Shown: one piece after another, positions 2,660-37,437 of the stretch
How positions within the stretch are numbered: position 1 is the first letter of the stretch
Layout: the number at the start of each line of letters is the position of its first letter
Notes under the pieces: model-generated
Databases searched by the model: none
What the model saw: only the letters and a program-made list of their open reading frames with translations
Told to the model about the DNA's origin: nothing
Made by a program: the position numbers and the translations under genes
Assembly: GCA_964606775.1 (NCBI GenBank)
Contig: CAZSGW010000002.1
Span: 16,129-80,128 of the forward strand
DNA length: 64,000 nt
Direction: 5' to 3'
From: Candidatus Woesearchaeota archaeon
Lineage (GTDB): Archaea; Nanobdellota; Nanobdellia; Pacearchaeales; GW2011-AR1

Positions 2660-4822
2660 CTATTGATTCTCACTCAATCCTTTTCTTTCTCTAATCTTCT
2701 TAATTACATCGTCTTGCATACCTGATGGTATCTTTTCGAATTGCTGTTCCATTAGAGAAGAAGTCCCTCTCCCTTCTGTTGTTGACCTTAAATCATTGCT
2801 CCAACCAATCATTTCAGCTACTGGAATTTTTGCTTTAATTTGAGCAACTCCGCTTTCCTGATTCATATCAAGCATTTGCCCTCTCTTACTTCCAACTAAC
2901 TTTGTAATCGACCCCATAAAGTCCTCCGGAGCGTCAATCATATGAACCTGAAGTGGTTCGAATATAGCAGGACCCGCTTTGTTCATTGCGCCCTTAATAC
3001 CATCTCTAACCGCAGGATAAACCTGGGCAGGACCTCTATGGATCGCGTCCTCATGAAGCTTAATATCAACCAACGTAACTTTCATTTTCATACACGGTTC
3101 TCTTGCTAAAGGACCCTCGTCCATAACCATTTCAAAAGAATCCATAATCATTTCAATAACTTCTTGTATATGAACCTCTCCCCGAGTTTCATCCAAGAAC
3201 ATATTTCCTTTGTAAATATCTCTAACATTTCTAATCTCATCAGAACCCCATCCTAATTTTTCAGAAAGTGCTTTCGTAACCGCTTCGGATTTCTTCTTAA
3301 CTCTTCCCTCGGGCAAATCTCCCGACTTTATTAAATCATAGATTTCCTCTTCCAAAGGTTCAACCTTTATAAAAAATCCATTGTGTTTATTCGGAGACCT
3401 TCCTTCCGCAGGAGGAGATTCCTTTGTAACCGTTTCTCTATAAACAATAATTGGAGGCGAGGTCTTAACTTCTAAACCTTTCTCCGTCTTAATTCTATTC
3501 TCAATAATTTCTAAATGTAATTCTCCCATACCTGAAATTAATGATTCTCCGGTTTGTTCATTAATTGTAACCTTTATTGAAGGATCTTCTTTTCCAATTT
3601 GTTTTAATGTATCAACAAGTTTTGGCAAGTCCGCAGCTTTGGTTGGTTCAATGGATTTTGTAACAACCGGTTCAAACAAATGAGTAATGGCCTCGAAAGG
3701 GGTCATTTCTTGTTTTGAAACTGTCTCACCTGCAACAACATCTTTTAATCCAACAACTCCTACAATATTTCCAGCACTAACAGAATCAACAACAACTCTT
3801 TGCGCTCCCTTGTAAACCGAAACCTGTTGGACTCTCACGTTTCTCTTTGCAAGATTCATATAAATCTCATCACCCTGTTTAATTGTTCCTGAAAATAATC
3901 TTCCCGCAGCAATTTCTCCCGCGTGTTTGTCAATAACAATTTTAGTCGGAACAAAAACTGGCTCTCCATCGGCATCGCACTCCATTAAGTCTTTTCCAAT
4001 CTCGGTATTTTCATCTCCTCTCCAAATTCTTGGAATTCTATATTTTTGAGCTTCTAATGGATTAGGATGATGTTTAATACTCATATTTAAAACAACATCA
4101 TGAAGAGGAGCTTTTTTCGCTAACTCTTTGTGGTTGTCATTTTCATAAGCATCAATTATGTCTTTGAATGTAATATTATTTTTTTGCATATATGGGAAAC
4201 TCAAAGCCCAATTATGGAATGCAGAACCAAAAGCAACAGTTCCCTCTCCAACACCAACCTTCCACTTTTCTTTATATCCTTCAGGAGCAATTTGTTCTAT
4301 TAATCTATTAACATGATCAATAATAGAAATAAATTTCTTTTGCATTTCTTCTGGAGTTAATTTAACTTCTTTGATTAATCTATCAACTTTATTAATGAAT
4401 AAAACAGGTTTAACTAATTCCTTCAAAGCTTGTCTAAGAACAGTTTCTGTTTGAGGCATAACACCTTCAACAGCACATGAAAGAACAACACAGCCATCAA
4501 CAGCTCTCATAGCCCTTGTAACATCTCCTCCAAAATCAACATGCCCTGGAGTATCAATCAAATTTATCAAGTAATCTTCGTCGTTTAATCTATGAAGCAT
4601 CGAAACAGACGCCGAATCAATTGTAATTCCTCTTGAAGATTCATCTTCATGGAAGTCTAAAGCTCTTTGTTTTCCCGCAGTCTCTTCTGAGAGCATACCT
4701 GCACCAGCCAAAAGATTATCTGAAAAAGTAGTCTTCCCGTGATCGATATGGGCAGCGATTGCTATGTTTCTAATCTTCTCTCTGTTCTTCATTAATTTAA
4801 CAAAATCAATTTTTTCAGCCAT
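2660..4822 (-). CDS. fusA: translation elongation factor aEF-2
   Basis: AHIDHGKTT G1 motif, DTPGHVDF, diphthamide-site HRG motif (DAIHRGPAQ); 720 aa. Confidence 0.95.
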   Translation of the reverse strand: MAEKIDFVKLMKNREKIRNIAIAAHIDHGKTTFSDNLLAGAGMLSEETAGKQRALDFHEDESSRGITIDSASVSMLHRLNDEDYLINLIDTPGHVDFGGDVTRAMRAVDGCVVLSCAVEGVMPQTETVLRQALKELVKPVLFINKVDRLIKEVKLTPEEMQKKFISIIDHVNRLIEQIAPEGYKEKWKVGVGEGTVAFGSAFHNWALSFPYMQKNNITFKDIIDAYENDNHKELAKKAPLHDVVLNMSIKHHPNPLEAQKYRIPRIWRGDENTEIGKDLMECDADGEPVFVPTKIVIDKHAGEIAAGRLFSGTIKQGDEIYMNLAKRNVRVQQVSVYKGAQRVVVDSVSAGNIVGVVGLKDVVAGETVSKQEMTPFEAITHLFEPVVTKSIEPTKAADLPKLVDTLKQIGKEDPSIKVTINEQTGESLISGMGELHLEIIENRIKTEKGLEVKTSPPIIVYRETVTKESPPAEGRSPNKHNGFFIKVEPLEEEIYDLIKSGDLPEGRVKKKSEAVTKALSEKLGWGSDEIRNVRDIYKGNMFLDETRGEVHIQEVIEMIMDSFEMVMDEGPLAREPCMKMKVTLVDIKLHEDAIHRGPAQVYPAVRDGIKGAMNKAGPAIFEPLQVHMIDAPEDFMGSITKLVGSKRGQMLDMNQESGVAQIKAKIPVAEMIGWSNDLRSTTEGRGTSSLMEQQFEKIPSGMQDDVIKKIRERKGLSENQ

Positions 4823-28267: not shown

Positions 28268-29104
28268 TTATAAATTATCTAAAGGGCTTCGAGTGTTGAT
28301 TAAATTCGGCGAAGCAATATGAGTATAAATTAAAGTTGTCTCAGGAGATTTGTGCCCGAGCATTGCCTGAACATTCTGAACATCATAACCATTTTCAACT
28401 AAATGAGTAGCAAAACTATGTCTTAATGTATGCGGATGAACGTTCTTTTTTATTCCTGCTTTTTTAGTCGCGTTTAAAACAATTTTCTGCAAACTTCTTA
28501 TATTGTACTTTGTCCCACGATTACTTTGAAACAAATAATCTTTATCTTCCAAATTTTCGATTTCAATCAAATTCTTTATTTTTTCTCTAACAATTTTTGG
28601 TAATGTGATTAACCTATCTTTTCCGCCCTTTCCATTTCGCACATATCCATAATTTTTATCCAGTTCCAAATCTTTGATTTTGACATTAGTTAACTCCGAC
28701 ACTCTTAATCCCGAACCATACAAAAATTCAATCATCAATCTGTGTTTCCAATTTGAAATGGCATTTAATAATTTTCTAACTTCTTCTTTAGACAAAACTT
28801 CAGGTAATTTTTTTGGAGTTTTAGAATATTTTATATCTATCCACATTCTTTTTTCTAAAACATTTTCAAAAAGGAATCTAATTGCCATATGGCAAGTATT
28901 CATTGTACTTCCAGCTAAATTTTTCTCAGACAAATATTCAAGAAACAAACGAACATCCTTTTTCGAAATATATCTTAAATCTTTTTTTGACCAATTCAAA
29001 AACGAATGAATGCAATGCAAATAAGTTTTAGCTGTTTTTGGAGATAATCTTCTCCTTTTACACTCTTTAATTATTTTAGAATCAATGTCTACAAAAGTCT
29101 TCAT
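28268..29104 (-). CDS. tyrosine recombinase/integrase (XerC/D/A-like)
   Basis: catalytic motifs R...HPHTLRHSFATHLVENGYD...LGHKSPETTLIYTH with terminal Tyr. Confidence 0.9.
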   Translation of the reverse strand: MKTFVDIDSKIIKECKRRRLSPKTAKTYLHCIHSFLNWSKKDLRYISKKDVRLFLEYLSEKNLAGSTMNTCHMAIRFLFENVLEKRMWIDIKYSKTPKKLPEVLSKEEVRKLLNAISNWKHRLMIEFLYGSGLRVSELTNVKIKDLELDKNYGYVRNGKGGKDRLITLPKIVREKIKNLIEIENLEDKDYLFQSNRGTKYNIRSLQKIVLNATKKAGIKKNVHPHTLRHSFATHLVENGYDVQNVQAMLGHKSPETTLIYTHIASPNLINTRSPLDNL

Positions 29105-29242
29105 AGTTATTATTTAAAATATATGTTTAAATATATATTTTGAAACTCTAGAATAAAAACAAAAAAGTTTGAGGCTGAACCAAAATTTACTTCTTTTAAC
29201 CAACTTAAATGCTCAAATTTAAAGGAGTTCGTTAAAAGTCTG

Positions 29243-29482
29243 TTATATTCAATTTTCCTTAACAGGAAAACTTTGCTCAAACATTTTTATAGTTAACTCA
29301 CAACTTTATGGAAGTCGCTCAGATTGACTTCGCTCCATTCTCAAAAAGGAATATAACACTGATTATATTCAATTTTCCTTAACAGGAAAACTTTGCTCAA
29401 ACATTTTTATAGTTAACTCACAACTTTATGGAAGTCGCTCAGATTGACTTCGCTCCATTCTCAAAAAGGAATATAACACTGA
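29243..29482. repeat. perfect tandem duplication, 2 x 120 bp, plus degenerate start of a third copy
   Basis: 29243-29362 identical to 29363-29482; unit contains palindrome GAAGTCgctcagattGACTTC. Confidence 0.95.
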
Positions 29483-29598
29483 TTAGTTTCAATTGCAAAT
29501 TCTCTAAATTGTTGAGTTTGAAAATAGGAGAGGACACTTTAAAACCCCGACCACCCACCCCTGTTAGGAGATGTGTGCTTGGTTTTATCTTCGATAAA

Positions 29599-29627
29599 AC
29601 AGATAGTCAAAACTTTCAGTTTTGAGA
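29599..29627. promoter_or_regulatory. 29-nt motif ACAGATAGTCAAAACTTTCAGTTTTGA with 8-bp palindrome arms (copy 1)
   Basis: identical copy at 34960-34988; each upstream of a + strand membrane/secreted-protein gene. Confidence 0.5.
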
Positions 29628-29800
29628 TTTAATTGAAATAATCTTCCCCCAAAAATTGAAAAAACTTCTTTTATCGGACCAGAAAAATCTCTCGAAATTT
29701 CTTCAAAATTTCGCCTAACAAACGATAAAAGGTTCGCTCTGCTCTCCCAAATTTTTTCAAAAATGAAAAGCTTTTTATATTATGCTTTTTAATATATATT

Positions 29801-31240
29801 ATGAAAAGATTAATGGTGTTAATGAGTGTAGTATTAATTTTTAGTATGGTTAGTTTGGTTTCTGCAGATACTTGTACAGATACAGATGGATTAAATTTAT
29901 ATTCAAAAGGGATGATTTCAGGATACGAAGATGAAAATTATGGAGAGTTTGAAGATAGATGTACTATTAATCCTGGTTCAGATTATACTGTTCTTCAAGA
30001 AGGCTATTGTAAAGAAGATGGAAGTTCTGCAATTTTAACAATTACTTGTTCTAGTGAATGTGTTGAGGGAACATGTGTTGGAGAACAACAAAGTGTACCT
30101 AGTTGTTCTGATTCTGATGGAGGATTAGATTTTTATGAAAAAGGTTCTATATCTGGACCAAAATTTACAGGCAAAGAAGAGGATATTGTGAGTTCAAAAA
30201 CTTATGAGGATAGTTGCACAACTAAAGGAGATATGAATCAATTAGAATATTATTGTGATAGTGGGTTAATTGTTTCAGTAAGTCATTGGTGTCCGCAAGG
30301 GTGTAGTGATGGAGCTTGTTTGCCTGAACCTGTTTGTTATGATTCAGATGGTTTAGACTATTATAATAAAGGGTATACTCAAAAAGATGATGACCCTAAA
30401 ACTTATGATGGATGTAAATCACCACATGACGGGACTCTTTATGAAAGATTTTGTAGGGATGACGGCATTCCGTATATTGAAGATTTTTATTGTGAGTTTG
30501 GTTGTAAGGATGGAGCTTGTTTAGAAGAACCTAGTGAAGAAAATGAAACCTGTGTGGAAACAGATAAAGGTAAGGATAGATATTTGAAGGGTAGAACTTA
30601 TATTGGAAAAGATACTCATACTGATTCTTGTTATCAAGATTCTTTAGTTGAGTATTATTGTTCTTTTGATTTAGAAACTCAAAAAGATTTTATTAAAAAA
30701 GATACTCTTGAGTGTACTCAAGGATGTGAGGATGGAGCATGCGTCCAATTAGAATGTTCTGAAACAGATAATGGGAAAGATGGTTTTGTTAAAGGAACAA
30801 CATGGATTGGAGAAGACACTCACACAGACGCTTGTTATAATAACAATGTTGTTGAGTACTATTGTTCTTTTGATTCTGAATTAGATAAACCTTTTATTAA
30901 AAAAGATGAGATAATTTGTGAAGCGGGATGTGAAGATGGGGCTTGTTTAAATAAAACAATAATAAAACCAGATTTAGATGAAGGTCCAGAAGAAATAAAT
31001 GACTTTAACAAATATTTTTGTTATGGGTGTTTAGTGGAGAAGTCATGTTATCCATTAGGATATAGAAAAGGTGGAGATTATTGTTCTGATGAAAATAATG
31101 AATTTATAGTTCAATTAGAAGCAGAATCTTCTTGCGAAAATAATTTTGAATGTGATAGTAATCTTTGTATAAATGATGAGTGTGTAAGTGGAAGCTTATG
31201 GGCTAAATTTATAAGATGGTTAAGTAAGATTTTTGGTTAA
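29801..31240 (+). CDS. secreted Cys-rich protein with five tandem ~70-aa repeats
   Basis: N-terminal signal/TM, repeats each ending GC(E/S/K)DGAC(L/V); C-terminal WAKFIRWLSKIFG motif. Confidence 0.7.
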   Translation: MKRLMVLMSVVLIFSMVSLVSADTCTDTDGLNLYSKGMISGYEDENYGEFEDRCTINPGSDYTVLQEGYCKEDGSSAILTITCSSECVEGTCVGEQQSVPSCSDSDGGLDFYEKGSISGPKFTGKEEDIVSSKTYEDSCTTKGDMNQLEYYCDSGLIVSVSHWCPQGCSDGACLPEPVCYDSDGLDYYNKGYTQKDDDPKTYDGCKSPHDGTLYERFCRDDGIPYIEDFYCEFGCKDGACLEEPSEENETCVETDKGKDRYLKGRTYIGKDTHTDSCYQDSLVEYYCSFDLETQKDFIKKDTLECTQGCEDGACVQLECSETDNGKDGFVKGTTWIGEDTHTDACYNNNVVEYYCSFDSELDKPFIKKDEIICEAGCEDGACLNKTIIKPDLDEGPEEINDFNKYFCYGCLVEKSCYPLGYRKGGDYCSDENNEFIVQLEAESSCENNFECDSNLCINDECVSGSLWAKFIRWLSKIFG

Positions 31241-31269
31241 AAAATTTTCCACCCCCAAGATTATTTCTT

Positions 31270-31290
31270 CTTCTTTTTAGAAAAAAGAAG
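31270..31290 (+). terminator. A/T palindromic hairpin with T-tract just after stop codon
   Basis: CTTCTTTTT-AG-AAAAAGAAG; same kind of element after stops at 33436-33454, 33475-33495, 36433-36451. Confidence 0.4.
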
Positions 31291-31750
31291 CAAAAAGACG
31301 CACACATCTCTTATTTAATGGGTTTTACAGACGGAACCCACCGTCCTAAAGTGTCCTCTCTAATTATATGACGAGAATTTGCAACTTTGATTTTTTGCCT
31401 TCGGCATCGTTGCACTAAAAATCAATCCTCACTTTGTTCGGAGAAACTAACAAGAATTCCCAGCGTCGATAAATCGACCAAATTTAAAATTTCATTTTTT
31501 GCCCACCCGACATAGGAGAAAAAAGCCTGCGTCCTTCGGGCAGATAGCTGAAACAAGTTTCAGAGAAAAACTTCTTTTACCCGACCGACGAGAAAACAAA
31601 CAAAATGCTTCGCACTTTGTATAACAAAGGGTAAAAGGTTTCACTCCGTTACACCCAAATTTTTCATTTAACTTGAGGGGTTCTTAGTCCTTCGGACAAA
31701 TTGTCGGCTCACGCCGAAATGATTAAAAGGTTTAAATTTTTTATTTTCTT

Positions 31751-32491
31751 ATGAATGAAAAAACTTCCCAAGAAGAATTGTTTAATTATATTCTTAACTT
31801 AACTCCAATAATTGAAATTGAAGAAGTAAAAAAAGATTTAACAACTTCAATGAAGAGAAGAGAATATATTAAAATAAATGGAAATAAAATTAATTTTTAT
31901 AATCTTAAAGCTCATTTAGATACAATACAAAGAAGAAAATATCTTAATAATTTCTGCCTTTATGAAATATCAAAAGATTGTGATAACAAAGATAATATAA
32001 CTAAAAAAGAAGTAGAATTTTTAGACAAAGAAAAAAATAATTATCTTCCAAACTTTCTTATTCAATGCGAATATTTTTTATTCTCAACAAAAACTATTTT
32101 TGATACAATTCTAAAAATGATAAATTACATTTTTCCAGAGGAATCTCAACCAACATCTTTTAGGAGAATGGAAAATTGGACAGATGAAATAAAAATTAAA
32201 TCTCTGATTTCTAGTAATTGGGATTGGTTTACTAAATTCAATGAATTAAGAAATAGCTTGACTCATGATGCTATTGCTGGAATAACAACACAAATAAAAA
32301 GCAAACCTCAAGAAGGAATAATTAATTATTCGAAGAGAAACCTAAAGATTTGGAATGAAAAAAGACAGGAGGAGGATATACTACAATTGCCCAATTATTT
32401 TGAAGAATGTTTTTCAAAAACTAAACAATTCATAAATAATTTTTATGAACTTTTACTAAAACAGAAAATAGAAGGAAATTCTATTTCTTGA
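31751..32491 (+). CDS. hypothetical protein (possible HEPN-like Rx4H motif)
   Basis: 246 aa; ELRNSLTHD motif. Confidence 0.45.
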   Translation: MNEKTSQEELFNYILNLTPIIEIEEVKKDLTTSMKRREYIKINGNKINFYNLKAHLDTIQRRKYLNNFCLYEISKDCDNKDNITKKEVEFLDKEKNNYLPNFLIQCEYFLFSTKTIFDTILKMINYIFPEESQPTSFRRMENWTDEIKIKSLISSNWDWFTKFNELRNSLTHDAIAGITTQIKSKPQEGIINYSKRNLKIWNEKRQEEDILQLPNYFEECFSKTKQFINNFYELLLKQKIEGNSIS

Positions 32492-32753
32492 TTAATTCTT
32501 TTGCGACCTTTTCACCTTCTTTTGTCCTCTTGTAAATCCTTCCCGTTCTATCTTCAGGATTTACAACTTCAACAAGTTTTTTATCTCTCAATTCAGATAA
32601 AGCACGAGAAACAAGATTAAAATAAGTGTTGCTGTTACTTTTGTAAATTTTCATAACTAATTCCGAAGGCATCATAGGTTTATCCAAATTCATAAAAACT
32701 TCTTTTCTATTTTTGCCTCTCTTTACAAAACCTATGGCTTTTAGCAATTCCAT
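32481..32753 (-). CDS. small winged-helix transcriptional regulator
   Basis: 90 aa wHTH-like. Confidence 0.5.
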   Translation of the reverse strand: MELLKAIGFVKRGKNRKEVFMNLDKPMMPSELVMKIYKSNSNTYFNLVSRALSELRDKKLVEVVNPEDRTGRIYKRTKEGEKVAKELIKK

Positions 32754-32846
32754 AGCAATCTATATACAAAGAAATTTAAGAAGCAAATTCAACAATCTAT
32801 TAGCAAAAGGAAAAGGTTTATAAAATAGTTTTCTCTATATTTTATT

Positions 32847-33425
32847 ATGGATAAAAAAGTGACTATTGGAATTGTTGTGGCAGTTATAGTTATCGTTGCA
32901 GGATATTTTATTTTCTTTAATCAATCATCTTCTACAATTTTACCTTCTAAACCTCAAACTTATAGCGGAGATGTTTCTAGTTTAGTTTTTAGTCTAGAAG
33001 AATTACCTGAAGGATACAAAATTGCCGAAAGAACTCCAAGAACAAAATCAGATGTTTCCGAAGAAGGTTTAAGTTGGGGATGGAGCGAAGGTTATTACAT
33101 AAGATATCTTAAAGGTGGAGAAGAAAGTTTATTTGATGTAAGCCGTATTGAGTTATATGTTTCAAGATATCCTTTAGAAAATGTAAGTAAGGGTATTGAA
33201 AATGGGGCTCCAGAATATGAAGGTTATACTATGGAAGAATTGCCAAATCCAAATATTGGCGAAATGTCTTTGGCGACAAGATACACAGATGATGATTTAG
33301 GTTTAAGAGAATATCAAATTGAATTTTATGATAAAGATATTTATATTACTCTTATGAATGGTGGTTCAGCAACAGATTATGAATTGTTAAAAGAACTCGC
33401 TAAAAAAATTGAAGGTAAGATTTAA
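32847..33425 (+). CDS. N-terminally membrane-anchored extracytoplasmic protein
   Basis: single N-terminal TM helix then soluble domain. Confidence 0.5.
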   Translation: MDKKVTIGIVVAVIVIVAGYFIFFNQSSSTILPSKPQTYSGDVSSLVFSLEELPEGYKIAERTPRTKSDVSEEGLSWGWSEGYYIRYLKGGEESLFDVSRIELYVSRYPLENVSKGIENGAPEYEGYTMEELPNPNIGEMSLATRYTDDDLGLREYQIEFYDKDIYITLMNGGSATDYELLKELAKKIEGKI

Positions 33426-33645
33426 TTCTGAAAACTTCTTTTAGAAAAAGAAGGCAAAATAAGAACCCCTCATTTTCTTTTTTAGAAAAAAAGAAACAAA
33501 AAAGGGCAGGCTTTTTTCTCTAATTATTTGGTCGTCGGAAACAACCATCCTCCTCCCCCACCCTAAAATGAAATTTTAAACTCACGAGGAAACTTTTTGT
33601 TTCAGCTCGTGCCCTTCGGGTCTGGGAACAGCAGATTAATTGCAA

Positions 33646-33820
33646 TTCTAAAACCTGCCTTTCTCGACGAGAAAGTAACCATAAATCCTAAAAGTTGTCG
33701 CCTTCGTTAAACGGACAAACGAGGAGAAAAAAAGAAATGCTTCGCACTTTCTTATAACAATCGTTTAACGGTTCGCTTCGCTCTCCCAAATTTTTTCTTG
33801 ATTGAAAGTTGGGGGGCTAA
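33646..33820. repeat. left arm of long imperfect inverted repeat
   Basis: TTCTAAAACCTGCC...AGTTGTCGCC...TTTTTTCTTGATTGAAAGTTGGGGGGCTAA matches rc of 34724-34830. Confidence 0.8.
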
Positions 33821-33822
33821 AA

Positions 33823-34059
33823 CTATTTTTTCCCAGACAGCCAAGAATTAATATGTTCTCTAACTTTTTTATTTGTGGCATAAAGAAAAATTCCTCCCAA
33901 TCCCACAATTACAGAACCAACATACGCAGGAACATCACCAATCAAAGATTTAATCACAAGAAAAACAACAACAATCATTATTGCTGCGACAATGATCAAT
34001 TTTCCTAAATCCAAAATGTCTTCTGTTAATTGTCTTGTTTCTCTGCTCATGTTAACCAA
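33823..34059 (-). CDS. small two-TM membrane protein
   Basis: 78 aa, hydrophobic core. Confidence 0.5.
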   Translation of the reverse strand: MVNMSRETRQLTEDILDLGKLIIVAAIMIVVVFLVIKSLIGDVPAYVGSVIVGLGGIFLYATNKKVREHINSWLSGKK

Positions 34060-34681
34060 ATACCTTTTTTAAGAATCCTTTTTTCTTAGGGGTAATTTTA
34101 GGCATACCATTCTCTTCCATTATCTTAATAACTGCTTCTGCCTGTGCTTTTGCCTCTTCTCCAATAAAGAGTTTTCCCAATTCGTTTATTTTTTCTTCAT
34201 ACCATTTACGTAAAGAAACGCCAAAAGCTTTCTTAGATAAATTTGGATTTTCAATTTCCATCTTTATTAATTTTTTTAATTCAACATCAATAAAAAATAC
34301 TTCTGCATAAACTATGTTAATCCTGTCTTTTTTATCTTCTCCTTTGTATGGAGTCCAAGAAATTGAAACTCTTTCGGGCAATTCATCCATTCTTCCAGCA
34401 TAAATCACATCTCTTAATATTGAAATTGCAAACCCATCAATTAAATCTCTTTTGTCCCTTAATTCTTCAGGACTACATTTCTTTCCTTTTGGGATTACTT
34501 TTATTTCAAACATCCTACTTCCTTCTTCGTTAATATGTCCTTTTTTATCTACATCTACATCCCAACCTAATTCCTCTGAATAATGGGATAATTCTTTTTT
34601 AGCATTAACAATCCCACTAGAAGTAGCACTAATTGTAAAATAGGTTTCAATCCATTTATAATTCTCTAAATCTTCTGCCAT
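34052..34681 (-). CDS. hypothetical protein
   Basis: 209-aa ORF overlapping downstream small membrane-protein gene. Confidence 0.5.
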   Translation of the reverse strand: MAEDLENYKWIETYFTISATSSGIVNAKKELSHYSEELGWDVDVDKKGHINEEGSRMFEIKVIPKGKKCSPEELRDKRDLIDGFAISILRDVIYAGRMDELPERVSISWTPYKGEDKKDRINIVYAEVFFIDVELKKLIKMEIENPNLSKKAFGVSLRKWYEEKINELGKLFIGEEAKAQAEAVIKIMEENGMPKITPKKKGFLKKVFG

Positions 34682-34723
34682 ATTATATAGATTAGAGAGA
34701 ACATATTTATAAAATTATCTATC

Positions 34724-34830
34724 TTAGCCCCCCAACTTTGTCTTTCAGACATTTAGTCTGCCTACGGCAGAGATATATAAAATCAAGAAAAAACTACGGC
34801 GACAACTGGATTTACGGCAGGTTTTAGAAC
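34724..34830. repeat. right arm of inverted repeat (shorter, deleted version of left arm)
   Basis: TTAGCCCCCCAACTT...GGCGACAACT...GGCAGGTTTTAGAA. Confidence 0.8.
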
Positions 34831-34959
34831 TTCTTCGGAAAACTTCGTTTTCCTCGACCACGCTGCGCTCTCGCCTTCGGCTCGGGGCAATTAACAGCGA
34901 TTATATTCAATCGTCGTGTAGATTTATTAAAAGGGGATTGCCGCCTTAGTCCCTTTGGG

Positions 34960-34988
34960 ACAGATAGTCAAAACTTTCAGTTTTGAAG
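34960..34988. promoter_or_regulatory. 29-nt palindromic motif copy 2
   Basis: identical to 29599-29627. Confidence 0.5.
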
Positions 34989-35035
34989 ATTTATTTACAA
35001 AGATTTTTATATCTCCATTTATATTTATATTCATA

Positions 35036-35515
35036 ATGGCAAGACATTATGATGACGGATATGAAATGTATGTTCCAGGAAAAAAGAAACATCATTCACA
35101 TCACTATTCCTCAAGAGGACATTTGAACTTTAAAAATTTCCTTAGAAGATATGTTTATTTTAGAATTCAAAATGATGTTGAACCCCATCTAAAACAATTT
35201 GGCATAATATTTATTATTGGACTTGTTTTGAATTATGTATATTATCAAACTCTTTCATTAAGATACCTCTTTATTGGAGGAGTAAATGAATGGTTTAATG
35301 TTCTAATGCCAACATTAAATTATGGTTTTGGGACAGGTTATAATTTATTTTATCTGATTATTAACGGAATTTTTTATGCCTATTTTTATTATAGTTTTAT
35401 ATTAGTTATTTACAATACGATAACTAATTTAGATGATAGAGATACATGGGTTATGATTGGATGGTTTGCATTAATAATATGGATAATAACAAAGATATTT
35501 CCGCAAATAATATAA
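35036..35515 (+). CDS. membrane protein, His-rich N-terminus (start placed at internal ATG)
   Basis: TATA-like ATTTATATTTATAT ~20 nt upstream of ATG 35036; ORF-track start 34955 would read through the conserved palindromic motif. Confidence 0.45.
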   Translation: MARHYDDGYEMYVPGKKKHHSHHYSSRGHLNFKNFLRRYVYFRIQNDVEPHLKQFGIIFIIGLVLNYVYYQTLSLRYLFIGGVNEWFNVLMPTLNYGFGTGYNLFYLIINGIFYAYFYYSFILVIYNTITNLDDRDTWVMIGWFALIIWIITKIFPQII

Positions 35516-35541
35516 ACAAATATTAACAATCAATTATAAAG

Positions 35542-36414
35542 ATGAAAGATAAAATCCTAAATCAAACAAAACATTTCTGTAAAAAGAAATGGAATCAGTT
35601 TACTTTTTGGTTTACAAAAAAAGAGCATCCAAGAAGTATATTAAATAAAAATGTGTTCTTTCATGATTTACTAAAAATTATCGGTTTAATTTTAGTATTC
35701 TTGATTGTTTATTCAAATGTTGATAAGCTAAATCAAATTGTTTTGATATTTATAAAAATAGGTTCACTATTACAACTCGTATTGCTTTTCTTTATTTTAA
35801 GAAAAGCATGGCATTTGACAATTAACTTGAAATACTTTTTTCGTGGACTAAACCATGGAACAAAAGCTATAATTGCTATCGCTTTGGTTTTATTACTCTT
35901 TATGGCTTTTCAAAATCAAGAAAAAGTAGTTGATTCGGTAGTTGAATCTTACGAAAAAGCAGAATTTCAAAAATTTAATCCTATTAATGCCAATCTAAAT
36001 TTATCTTCATTAAATCTTAAAGGAATAACAAAGCAACTTAACACTTGTCCACAAATTGATGTTCCTATTAATTTTCCTAAATATGGAGACCCTAATATCA
36101 AAAGTCAAACCTATGATGGATGGAAAGTTAAAGGAAGTGCAACTTGTAGAAAGGGAACAAAAGAAGGAGAAAATCTAAATAGATATTATTGTGGTGGATA
36201 TGAAAGTTTTATGGGAATAGGAAGTGTTAATGCTTATGTTGAAAAAACAACAATTTCTGATGACGGAGATATCGGAAAAACTTACAAATATGTTATATGG
36301 AATATTTATGATGAAGATAAAAACTTTGTAGAAACAAGATGTATCGGAGATCCTGACGAGTTTGATAAAAAACAAGCTGAAGCATTTTATAATGAAATGC
36401 TAAAATGGAGCTAA
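35542..36414 (+). CDS. membrane-anchored protein with Cys-containing extracytoplasmic domain
   Basis: N-terminal TM helices, C-terminal soluble domain. Confidence 0.5.
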   Translation: MKDKILNQTKHFCKKKWNQFTFWFTKKEHPRSILNKNVFFHDLLKIIGLILVFLIVYSNVDKLNQIVLIFIKIGSLLQLVLLFFILRKAWHLTINLKYFFRGLNHGTKAIIAIALVLLLFMAFQNQEKVVDSVVESYEKAEFQKFNPINANLNLSSLNLKGITKQLNTCPQIDVPINFPKYGDPNIKSQTYDGWKVKGSATCRKGTKEGENLNRYYCGGYESFMGIGSVNAYVEKTTISDDGDIGKTYKYVIWNIYDEDKNFVETRCIGDPDEFDKKQAEAFYNEMLKWS

Positions 36415-36633
36415 AAATCTAATTCTAATTTTCTTTTTTAAAAAAAAGAAACAAAAAAGGCGGCGGCAATCCCCAGAAAAAAAACTATACACACGACGAC
36501 TTTGAGTTTTCCCTTCGGGACGTTGCACTAAAACTCAATCCCTAACGGGAGAATATAACAAGGATTACATTCAATTTCTTCACTCCATTTAACAGCACAA
36601 AAGCAATAAAAACCCTCGACTCTTCACTCTTAA

Positions 36634-37437
36634 ATGGAAAAAGAAGTGAAACCAAATATAAAACAAGAACAAATTCACGACATTCTTTTCAATCGTGAAA
36701 TAGGTTGGCAAGAAATAATCTATGATTTAATCAACACTGAACAACTTGATCCTTGGGACGTAAATATTTCAATACTCGCCGAAAAGTATTTGGAAAAAAT
36801 AAAGGAACTTGAAGAGGCAGATTTCTTCGTATCTTCAAAAGTACTCCTCGCAGCTTCACTTTTACTAAGAATTAAATCCGAAATACTTCTAAACAAATAT
36901 ATCAAATCAATAGACGAAATACTTTTCGGAAAAGAAGAAAAAAAGAAATACGAAATGGAAAGGATAGAACTAGATGAACAAATACCCGAGCTAATACCAC
37001 GAAGCCCAATGCCCAGATTCAAAAAAGTTACTTTAAAAGAATTGATGGAGTCCCTAAATAAAGCAATATCAACAGAAAATAGAAGGATAAAAAAAGAAAT
37101 AATCAAGAAAAACGCATTAAGGGAATCCTCAATCTCTCTTCCAAAGAAAAATACAAGCATAAAAGACAAAATAAAAATAATCTACGAGAAAATAACAGGA
37201 CATTTTCTAAATAGCAAGACCCACAAAAAAGTACCTTATTCTCATTTGACTGGAGAAAAAAGAGAAGAAAGGATACACTCTTTCGGACCTTTACTACAAT
37301 TAGAAAACCAAAAGAAACTCTGGTTACATCAAGAAAATCACTTCGAAGAAATCCACATCTGGGAAAGAAAATCTTTTTGGAAACACAAAGGAGACCCTTT
37401 TGCAGATTTGCGTGAAGAGGAAGTTAAAAAAGAATAA
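36634..37437 (+). CDS. ScpA-like kleisin (segregation and condensation protein A), tentative
   Basis: N-terminal ...EQLDPWDVNISILAEKYLEKIKEL resembles ScpA N-terminal motif; 267 aa. Confidence 0.45.
   Translation: MEKEVKPNIKQEQIHDILFNREIGWQEIIYDLINTEQLDPWDVNISILAEKYLEKIKELEEADFFVSSKVLLAASLLLRIKSEILLNKYIKSIDEILFGKEEKKKYEMERIELDEQIPELIPRSPMPRFKKVTLKELMESLNKAISTENRRIKKEIIKKNALRESSISLPKKNTSIKDKIKIIYEKITGHFLNSKTHKKVPYSHLTGEKREERIHSFGPLLQLENQKKLWLHQENHFEEIHIWERKSFWKHKGDPFADLREEEVKKE

Follow-up and report, generated by a model that had tools for sequence, protein, structure and literature searches.

The 64,000-nucleotide stretch of Candidatus Woesearchaeota archaeon contig CAZSGW010000002.1 that we analysed (hereafter the window, in whose coordinates all features are given unless another locus is named) belongs to an AT-rich, archaeal genome encoding rpoE', S24e, S27ae and ScpA. 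It contains a gene for a XerA-type tyrosine recombinase (28268-29104, minus strand) and, on the far side of an array of gene cassettes that these two genes bracket, scpA (36634-37437). The region between them consists of open reading frames (ORFs) without a family assignment and of long, mosaic intergenic stretches, and within it are found two copies of a nested hairpin module, copy B (31384-31451) and copy E (36499-36559), both on the plus strand. The fold of this module, and its part in what appears to be a XerA-based system for the movement of cassettes, are the subject of this report.

The two copies have a common layout, in which a 9-bp A/T-rich outer stem encloses a 3-4-bp GC hairpin with a TTC loop followed by the unpaired stretch CGTTGCACT, whilst the 3' part is made up of a second 3-4-bp hairpin and the box GA-nnn-TAAC. 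In copy B the outer stem pairs 31387-31395 with 31417-31425, hairpin 1 pairs 31396-31399 with 31403-31406 around its TTC loop, the unpaired stretch TCGTTGCACT occupies 31407-31416, hairpin 2 pairs 31426-31428 with 31440-31442, and the left arm (R''), GAAACTAAC, follows at 31443-31451. The corresponding parts of copy E are an outer stem of 36502-36510 with 36530-36538, a CCC/GGG hairpin 1 (36511-36513 with 36517-36519), the unpaired stretch CGTTGCACT at 36521-36529, a hairpin 2 with a TAAC loop (36539-36542 with 36547-36550) and the left arm GAATATAAC at 36551-36559, all again on the plus strand. An earlier reading made from the letters of the window only (the sequence-only reading) had quoted these two copies and had proposed that paired substitutions maintain both stems. 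Both sequences are indeed present, and the substitutions are as described: the outer-stem pair T31391-A31421 of copy B is G36506-C36534 in copy E, and the hairpin 1 pair G31397-C31405 of copy B is C-G in copy E. The single-stranded stretch that it had called invariant is so, with a different extent: it comprises the 9 nt CGTTGCACT rather than ACGTTGCACT, as the preceding base is T in copy B and A in copy E. Homology between the copies reaches ~25 nt further 3', taking in hairpin 2 and GA-nnn-TAAC, and ~100 nt further 5'. With a covariance model, R1, which was seeded from eight foreign copies and whose structure was specified by hand, copies B and E scored 73.1 and 74.6 bits (E ~1e-15), the next-best match in the window scored 12.5 bits, and neither this model nor a motif search found a third copy of the nested hairpin in the 64 kb.

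Folding of the single sequences gave a mixed outcome. With RNA parameters and padded windows, alternative folds were chosen and minimum-free-energy z-scores lay between ~0 and -1.8, which is not significant. With DNA parameters and exact ends, the minimum-free-energy fold of copy E is the proposed structure (z -3.3 and -2.9), and for copy B the outer stem alone was recovered (z -2.1 and -1.8). Because the RNA folding of padded single sequences gave no significance, covariation across homologues was used.

Homologues were fetched by scanning metagenome contigs and GTDB genomes for an exact 18-nt pattern, with at least 120 loci taken from each. The covariance model, run over the fetched loci, identified at least about 255 homologues in 240 public contigs. 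Nearly all of the pattern matches were true homologues, whilst ~15 of the ~255 copies lack the 18-nt pattern. Among the matches listed, the hosts are overwhelmingly metagenome-assembled genomes (MAGs) of Woesearchaeota, Pacearchaeota and Nanoarchaeota. The scan for relatives that the sequence-only reading had recommended therefore returned two copies in the window and a family that is widespread in DPANN archaea, rather than a chance likeness confined to two sites. Viral contigs gave zero matches to the 18-nt pattern, and a reading of the module as a virus element finds no support.

As MAFFT with RNAalifold on the raw flanks overlooked hairpin 1 owing to indels, the hand-specified seed model was used for alignment. 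Across 98 distinct homologues, standard pairs fill 96.3% of cells (83.4% in shuffles), both-sided, compensatory changes occur in 14 of the 17 pairs (171 cells), and the covariation measures were matched by none of 500 shuffles. When, as a control, the 3' partner was slid by 1-3 columns, only 34-65% of cells were paired. Copies found independently of the search pattern have very different, yet complementary, outer stems (CGAGATTTT/AAAATCTCG, CTAAAATTT/AAATTTTAG and TTGGATTTT/AAAATCCAA), and in them the unpaired motif varies mildly, with its TTGCA core kept. As the stems covary across homologues, including those outside the search pattern, the fold of the nested hairpin is under selection, which confirms what the sequence-only reading had concluded from two copies; more copies did not, overall, turn out to have stems broken without compensation, poor pairing being found in L195 and ~15 other variants, to which we return below.

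Several individual copies merit separate mention. At one locus (L091, 1671-1742) the outer stem has its interior reversed in orientation with respect to hairpin 2 and the left arm, so that AGTGCAACG comes before hairpin 1; from its sequence, this would be a flip/flop-like inversion of a palindrome-bounded segment. True copies also occur on two contigs with bacterial genes, at 1950-2230 of L136 (WJLL01000047.1, a Portnoybacteria MAG), which carries DnaG (TIGR01391, 433 bits), and at 4500-5296 of L176 (MGFG01000022.1, an Uhrbacteria MAG), which carries MraZ and RsmH. In the latter, GC content shifts from ~0.37 to ~0.55 exactly at GTTTAAC-AACGA|. These copies represent either cross-domain cassette insertion or chimeric assembly.

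The recombinase gene beside the array scores 228.5 bits against the NCBIfam model XerA_Arch (NF040815; cutoff 220) and 212 against the integron-integrase model TIGR02249 (cutoff 265), the latter match being split in two. Its product aligns full-length and contiguously to the XerA structures 5hxy and 4a8e, and its alignment to VchIntIA (2a3v) skips residues 202-242, the 41-residue IntI-specific domain. The gene is transcribed away from the cassettes, and beside it lies a primary attI-like site, GTTAAAAGTCTG followed by TTATATTCAAT (29231-29253, plus strand). L195, whose XerA is 73% identical to that of the window and which shares the xerA flank, has the counterpart GCATAAAGTCTG then TTAAATCCAAT in the same place (4787-4812), and analogous ..TAATAGnTG|TTAnnnTCAAT sites are situated 100-175 nt from xerA in L090, L123, L148 and L011. 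A primary site is conserved at 100-250 nt from the xerA start.

Further core sites, all on the plus strand, punctuate the array. A perfect dif-like core, GAATATAAC-ACTGA-TTATATTCAAT (29349-29373), can also be written GAATATAA-CACTGA-TTATATTC(AAT) and has the longer form AAGGAATATAA-CACTGA-TTATATTCAAT at 29346-29373; a second dif-like core has the right arm TTAGTTTCAAT (29469-29493); a degenerate core, GAAACTAAC-AAGAATTCC-CAGCG-TCGATAAATCGACCAAAT (31443-31482), follows copy B and is homologous to 7221-7260 of L195; and a distal dif-like core, GAATATAAC-AAGGA-TTACATTCAAT (36551-36575), closes the array just upstream of scpA. Core variants stand at 29469, 34887 and 36551. With inverted arms of ~11 bp and a 6-bp spacer, the window core closely matches the Pyrococcus abyssi dif site used experimentally by Cortez et al. 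(ATTGGATATAA-TCGGCC-TTATATCTAAA; PMC2958812). Several dif-like sites occur within the 64 kb, where GC skew follows gene strand. The nested hairpin always has GA-nnn-TAAC and a core directly 3' of it, the general form of which is GAATATAAC-5 nt-TTATATTCAAT, and it keeps a constant distance, to the nucleotide, from the left arm in every copy. A stringent search for perfect dif-like cores beside xerA in the other loci returned mostly none, because the arms differ between lineages. With regard to scpA, next to which the array ends, a 2025 paper on Smc-ScpAB domain boundaries (PMC11840125) reportedly mentions XerA and dif many times.

The arrangement seen in the window recurs elsewhere. In all 25 multi-copy loci (25/25) the elements are co-oriented and 0.5-5 kb apart, and in 17 of the 18 loci that contain xerA this gene lies upstream and divergent, 0.7-7 kb from the elements, as it does in the window; the one other locus is convergent. 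Moreover, the 8-9 nt that directly precede the nested hairpin repeat, as an exact reverse complement, those that directly follow an upstream right arm. Of 178 testable elements, 67 obey this closing-complement rule, as do both window copies, whereas a reversed, uncomplemented control gave 3 hits. The closing stems have a median of 13 bp and delimit cassettes of 343-5751 bp (median 931 bp); they offer too few informative cells to assess wobble bias. Since the end repeats vary between cassettes yet are complementary within each, a reading of them as the terminal inverted repeats of a transposon was rejected.

At most junctions the left arm is followed by what we term the long form, which consists of A, a 12-nt L'' segment, a hairpin with a TTGCA loop and CTCCAC-CCAAAT and then, in its 3' part, of one or more variable hairpins, ACTT, an L' segment, GATG and the right arm. 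When 17 short long forms were folded as a consensus, 29 pairs resulted, 18 of them with compensatory changes. An R stem that joins the invariant AAC to GTT, a 2-nt bulge and an L stem of 12 bp lead up to a three-way branched tip. This geometry is attC-like, and the G|TT junction lies inside the R stem. When compared with the attC boxes RYYYAAC/GTTRRRY, AAC and GTT are invariant and paired, and the RYYY/RRRY portions are often violated (e.g. ATATAAC/GTTATAT). The TTGCA motif of the unpaired stretch turns up again in the long form, in the loop of hp3, and a full junction is a multi-helix structure of ~200-290 nt. Copies B and E of the window adjoin minimal or degenerate cores, not the long form. 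In single-stranded DNA, the pairing of cassette ends predicts a four-helix cloverleaf, the closing and arm stems meeting the nested hairpin and hairpin 2 at one junction. As a side observation, a sub-threshold Rfam match to CRISPR-DR2 (E 0.9) covers a right arm and closing repeat, GTTAGTTTCAAT-TGCAAATTCTC, in L082 (5080-5116), and is probably a chance likeness to GTTTCAAT-type repeats.

Using these boundaries, the array in the window can be divided into two mini-cassettes and four larger cassettes, all on the plus strand. The mini-cassettes are identical, ORF-less units of 120 bp (29243-29482) that form a 100% tandem repeat bounded by the cores at 29349 and 29469, each running from the right arm TTATATTCAAT to the left arm and spacer GAATATAAC-ACTGA; the unit looks like an 'empty' mini-cassette that was integrated twice or duplicated by unequal exchange. 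Cassette 1 (29483-31456) begins with its right arm (29483-29493) and ends with copy B, left arm and spacer. Its 5' closing repeats (29494-29504, 29528-29541 and 29568-29578) are answered by 3' repeats at 31300-31310, 31347-31360 and 31373-31383, the last pairing with 29494-29504, and copy B is directly preceded by 9 nt that are exactly complementary to the 9 nt following the arm labelled S2. Its ORF (29801-31240) specifies a secreted, Cys-rich protein of 479 aa with ~68-aa repeats (DNA repeats 30557-30703 and 30761-30907), for which no Pfam or NCBIfam match was found. A 117-aa, single-repeat relative is the cargo of the first cassette of L090 (8337-8690).

Cassette 4 (34901-36564) is delimited in the same way, by a right arm (34901-34911) and by copy E with left arm and spacer at its 3' end; its closing repeats pair 34912-34919 with 36491-36498 and 34933-34945 with 36462-36474, and it carries two ORFs (34955-35515 and 35542-36414). 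Cassette 2 (31483-33763), drawn from inverted matches, has boundaries that are less certain than those of cassettes 1 and 4. Its closing repeats lie at 31483-31498 and 31515-31530 on the 5' side and at 33506-33520 and 33565-33580 on the 3' side, its ORFs are at 31751-32491 (plus), 32481-32753 (minus) and 32847-33425 (plus), and it ends in a different structured accessory region with the left arm CTTATAAC at 33751 and the spacer AATCG. Cassette 3 (33764-34900), with an uncertain 5' boundary, contains an ORF on the minus strand (34052-34681), closing repeats that pair 33808-33820 with 34724-34736, a type-2 accessory module (34826-34886; CGCTGCGCT at 34861) and the left arm GGCAATTAAC (34886-34895) with the spacer AGCGA. 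The type-2 module is also present in L195 (6570-6646).

Two further non-coding features were noted in these cassettes. A/T palindromes with the pattern TTCTTTTTT-A-AAAAAAGAA, and with GCAAAAA after them, precede accessory modules at ~31267-31290 (cassette 1), ~33472-33495 (cassette 2) and ~36428-36452 (cassette 4). In many loci they mark where the conserved 3' cassette module begins, and they are probably the real transcription terminators of the cargo genes. Additionally, a ~300-nt non-coding block after copy B (31458-31750) is 72-81% conserved in L195, L159, L108 and L117, where the flanking ORFs differ. It includes several GC hairpins and a second ...TATAAC-AAAGGG-TAAAAGG...CCCAAAT unit, which is also found at 29696-29768 and 33735-33807, and such units may be fossil or alternative junctions.

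Comparison of loci also indicates where sequence exchange has taken place. Positions 34901-36566 of the window, comprising two ORFs and copy E, are 99.28% identical over 1666 bp to positions 928-2591 of the metagenome contig L115. The identity starts exactly at CAGCGA|TTATATTCAAT and ends exactly after GAATATAAC-AAGGA-TT, and the flanks are unrelated on both sides. By this comparison, cassette 4 is mobile, with both breakpoints exactly at core sites. Other blocks of at least 90% identity have breakpoints repeatedly at ...GATGTT| or ...AGCGATT|. Between the window and L195, the block 31394-31758 is 76% identical, the cassettes between this block and the shared xerA flank are entirely different, and neighbouring ORFs differ. 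A Logan contig from the window's own sample starts ~8 nt upstream of copy E, at ~36491, and short-read contigs of that sample also break inside the 120-bp repeat; assemblies break at array loci because of the cassette repeats. Across loci the cargo is accessory and varied (DNA methylases, a restriction enzyme, transporters and regulators amongst others); Rep or relaxase-type genes were not found in it, and the cassettes carry no recombinase. Relative to the element, the upstream ORF has the same orientation in 104 cases and the opposite one in 82, the downstream ORF in 73 and 83, respectively, and within delimited cassettes 61 ORFs are co-oriented with the array and 46 are opposite to it.

From these observations, we consider it likely that the nested hairpin acts at the level of DNA, as a structural module of the composite recombination site which small mobile cassettes carry at their 3' end, and that the neighbouring XerA inserts and excises these cassettes. 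The sequence-only reading had left a choice between an RNA and a single-stranded DNA recombination site resembling attC. It is the second of these that we favour, because the module abuts a core, arrays stand beside a divergent xerA, homology breaks off at cores, gene orientation is not fixed and the loops are of DNA type; the module itself sits beside an attC-like part and is not the attC-like hairpin. A cassette would then read, in order, right arm (G)TTAnnnTCAAT, closing repeat, cargo in either orientation, A/T palindrome, complementary closing repeat, nested hairpin, hairpin 2, left arm GAnnnTAAC and 5-nt spacer. When one strand, most likely the bottom one, becomes unpaired during replication, during DNA uptake or in an excised circle, it would fold into a compact four-way cloverleaf that presents the arm duplex to XerA. 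Strand exchange would occur at the boundary of spacer and right arm (G|TT), as in integrons and CTX-phi, with one strand pair exchanged and the product resolved by replication, a course that would tolerate differing spacers in the partner sites. The nested hairpin would nucleate and lock the fold through very stable GNA/GNNA mini-loops, display the conserved TTGCA-containing stretch for recognition, and mark the side and strand of the core that is used. We infer the identity of XerA as the acting enzyme, the folded single-stranded form, the exchange of single strands and the role of the hairpin from these arrangements of sites and genes.

A number of observations weigh against this interpretation. 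The thermodynamic support from single sequences is weak to moderate, and the exact 18-nt pattern used for fetching overstates the conservation of that stretch. L195 and ~15 'ACTCTAAAATTTT...AAAAATCAA' variants have a badly paired outer stem. No xerA is seen in 23 loci that extend at least 5 kb upstream of the element, for which the array may simply be long, or elements may be found elsewhere as well, and a circular signature was found in none of the fetched contigs. Furthermore, other cassettes carry other accessory modules (type 2 in the window, others in L195), which would make the nested hairpin dispensable; because of these different modules, it appears to be one of several interchangeable accessory solutions. 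Finally, the argument as to strand, given below, is suggestive, as it combines loop motifs with one ratio of mismatches. With respect to the poorly paired variants, they form a class in which a 5' half, ACTCTAAAATTTT, is joined to a 3' half, AAAAATCAA (L195 and, e.g., L129, L132, L144, L171, L173 and L185), and a partner that matches the variant 5' half, AAATTTTAG, occurs in other copies. Their make-up suggests recombinant or decaying modules.

The foremost competing explanation is a structured non-coding RNA, either a small RNA borne by cassettes or an RNA partner through which the recombinase is guided or regulated, encoded on either strand. Functional RNAs typically combine covarying helices with unpaired nucleotides that are conserved, and the full junction, with its several helices over ~200-290 nt, would suit such a role. 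The loops point elsewhere. Hairpin 1 has the loop C-TTC-G in 94 of 155 distinct copies, with TAC or TGC occurring in a few others; read on the bottom strand, all of these become d(cGNAg) triloops, C-TTC-G being d(cGAAg), and the short loops of hairpin 2 are likewise d(cGNNAg). GNA and GNNA loops reportedly form unusually stable DNA mini-hairpins, as is said to have been described by Hirao in 1994, Yoshizawa in 1997 and Nakano in 2002. Read on the top strand, the module loops follow neither the UUCG nor the GNRA rules of RNA, and amongst the non-Watson-Crick cells of that strand A·C outnumbers G·T by 66 to 28, a ratio taken from related, non-independent sequences. Together, loop types and A·C excess point to folded bottom-strand DNA over RNA, and are suggestive rather than decisive. 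Searches of the window region and of foreign long forms against Rfam 15, at gathering as well as permissive thresholds (E up to 5), returned no relevant family, and a tRNA/tmRNA scan of the window found five ordinary tRNAs, all of them elsewhere. No conserved, promoter-like flank was detected; instead, the 5' flanks fall into many unrelated classes and pair with the other cassette end. Also, the orientation is random relative to neighbouring genes, and the homology breakpoints cut the structure at the core, as they would a DNA site. On balance, we regard an RNA as unlikely.

Still less probable is that the module acts outside the recombination site, as a single-strand origin (sso)-like priming signal which converts single-stranded DNA circles of cassettes to double-stranded form. 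Folded, orientation-specific and ultra-stable DNA mini-hairpins with a conserved loop motif, on cassettes whose end repeats could form a panhandle, are what such a signal might look like. Against it, the spacing to the left arm of the core is constant to the nucleotide in every copy, and neither Rep or relaxase-type genes in the cargo nor circular contigs were seen. We judge to be marginally weaker again the proposal that the module is a double-stranded accessory sequence, comparable with cer and psi, at which host proteins set the directionality or topology of Xer recombination. Cer and psi accessory sequences likewise sit on one side of a Xer core, as this module does, and the module has a conserved 9-nt motif. 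Protein-bound, double-stranded DNA should, however, keep its sequence, whereas these stems change freely yet remain paired, even within one array, and the long-range complementarity, like that of cassette ends, also speaks against it. A transcription terminator or 3' untranslated region stabilizer of the upstream cassette gene, to which the position of both window copies ~90-145 nt after a plus-strand ORF might point, can be dismissed, as the strand of the upstream ORF over all loci is near-random (the same in 104 of 186 cases) and the separate A/T-rich palindrome with T runs between ORF and element is a better candidate.

The preferred interpretation, a composite site acted upon by XerA, has parallels in several known systems. 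As in integrons with attC and IntI, arrays of co-oriented, small cassettes stand beside a divergent tyrosine recombinase of the Xer/IntI clade; the site is at the 3' end of the cassette and keeps structure rather than sequence; the inverse boxes end in ..AAC and start with GTT.., with a G|TT junction; and, in the long form, there is a folded, imperfect hairpin with R stem, bulged bases, L stem and variable tip. Unlike in integrons, the recombinase is without the IntI-specific domain, the arms measure 9-11 bp and match archaeal dif, an extra conserved module (nested hairpin and hairpin 2) lies 5' of R'', the two ends of a cassette are complementary, the ORFs do not share the orientation of the array (61 versus 46), minimal, double-stranded dif-like cores also serve as junctions, and the RYYY/RRRY portions of the boxes agree only loosely. 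Two defining tests thus speak against a classical integron (IntI domain and ORF orientation), and on these features we would rather call it a cassette system based on XerA and dif, the folded sites of which are attC-like.

Integrative mobile elements exploiting Xer (IMEX), such as CTX-phi, TLC-phi and VGJ-phi, are non-autonomous DNAs that host Xer recombinases integrate in tandem at a dif-type site. CTX-phi does so through a folded, single-stranded attP, with one strand pair exchanged between sites whose central regions differ. In a similar manner, the cassettes described here are flanked by dif-like cores and have no recombinase of their own, the sole xerA being beside the array, and spacers differ between partner sites. 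In contrast to IMEX, they are gene cassettes of 0.3-6 kb without phage genes, in long arrays, in archaea and with a single XerA, and the predicted structure is a multi-hairpin cloverleaf rather than a forked hairpin from two attP halves. The core, GAATATAA-6 nt-TTATATTC(AAT), is near to the dif of P. abyssi, and the recombinase scores above the XerA model cutoff, yet in Thermococcales there is a single dif that is not beside xerA, whilst here many sites are arrayed next to the gene, each with a structured accessory module. The pdif modules of Acinetobacter are discrete gene modules bounded by Xer-type sites and shuffled between replicons; they differ in the alternating orientation of pdif sites, which are not known to carry a folded accessory structure, and in residing on bacterial plasmids. 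Finally, cer and psi share the extra DNA on one side of a Xer core, but PepA, ArgR or ArcA bind them in double-stranded form, and they are not known to show hairpin covariation. In the literature searched, on archaeal IMEX, Xer cassettes, DPANN dif arrays, archaeal tyrosine recombinases and Xer systems, no description of such an arrangement was found, the archaeal-integron paper included, and the motifs are absent from the supplements of that paper.

DPANN archaea, and possibly some candidate phyla radiation (CPR) bacteria, may possess an undescribed, integron-like capture system in which a housekeeping-type XerA free of the IntI domain acts on folded, single-stranded cloverleaf sites, a broader proposal that we regard as evenly balanced. 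Its sites would combine a dif arm duplex, an attC-like hairpin, closing repeats and the nested hairpin module. For practical purposes, the junctions would be synthesisable substrates (~65-250 nt) for studying how a Xer recombinase reads DNA structure, and the covariance model together with the closing-repeat rule allows cassettes to be delimited automatically in metagenomes. Integrons are the textbook case of structure-specific, single-strand gene capture, and IntI is thought to derive from Xer recombinases; if the proposal is true, the archaeal system would mean either that integron logic originated independently or that a remnant of the transition from Xer to IntI has survived. It would also show how gene capture can arise from, or coexist with, the resolution of chromosome dimers, and would provide a mechanism of gene flux for the ultra-small DPANN archaea, in which horizontal transfer is poorly understood.

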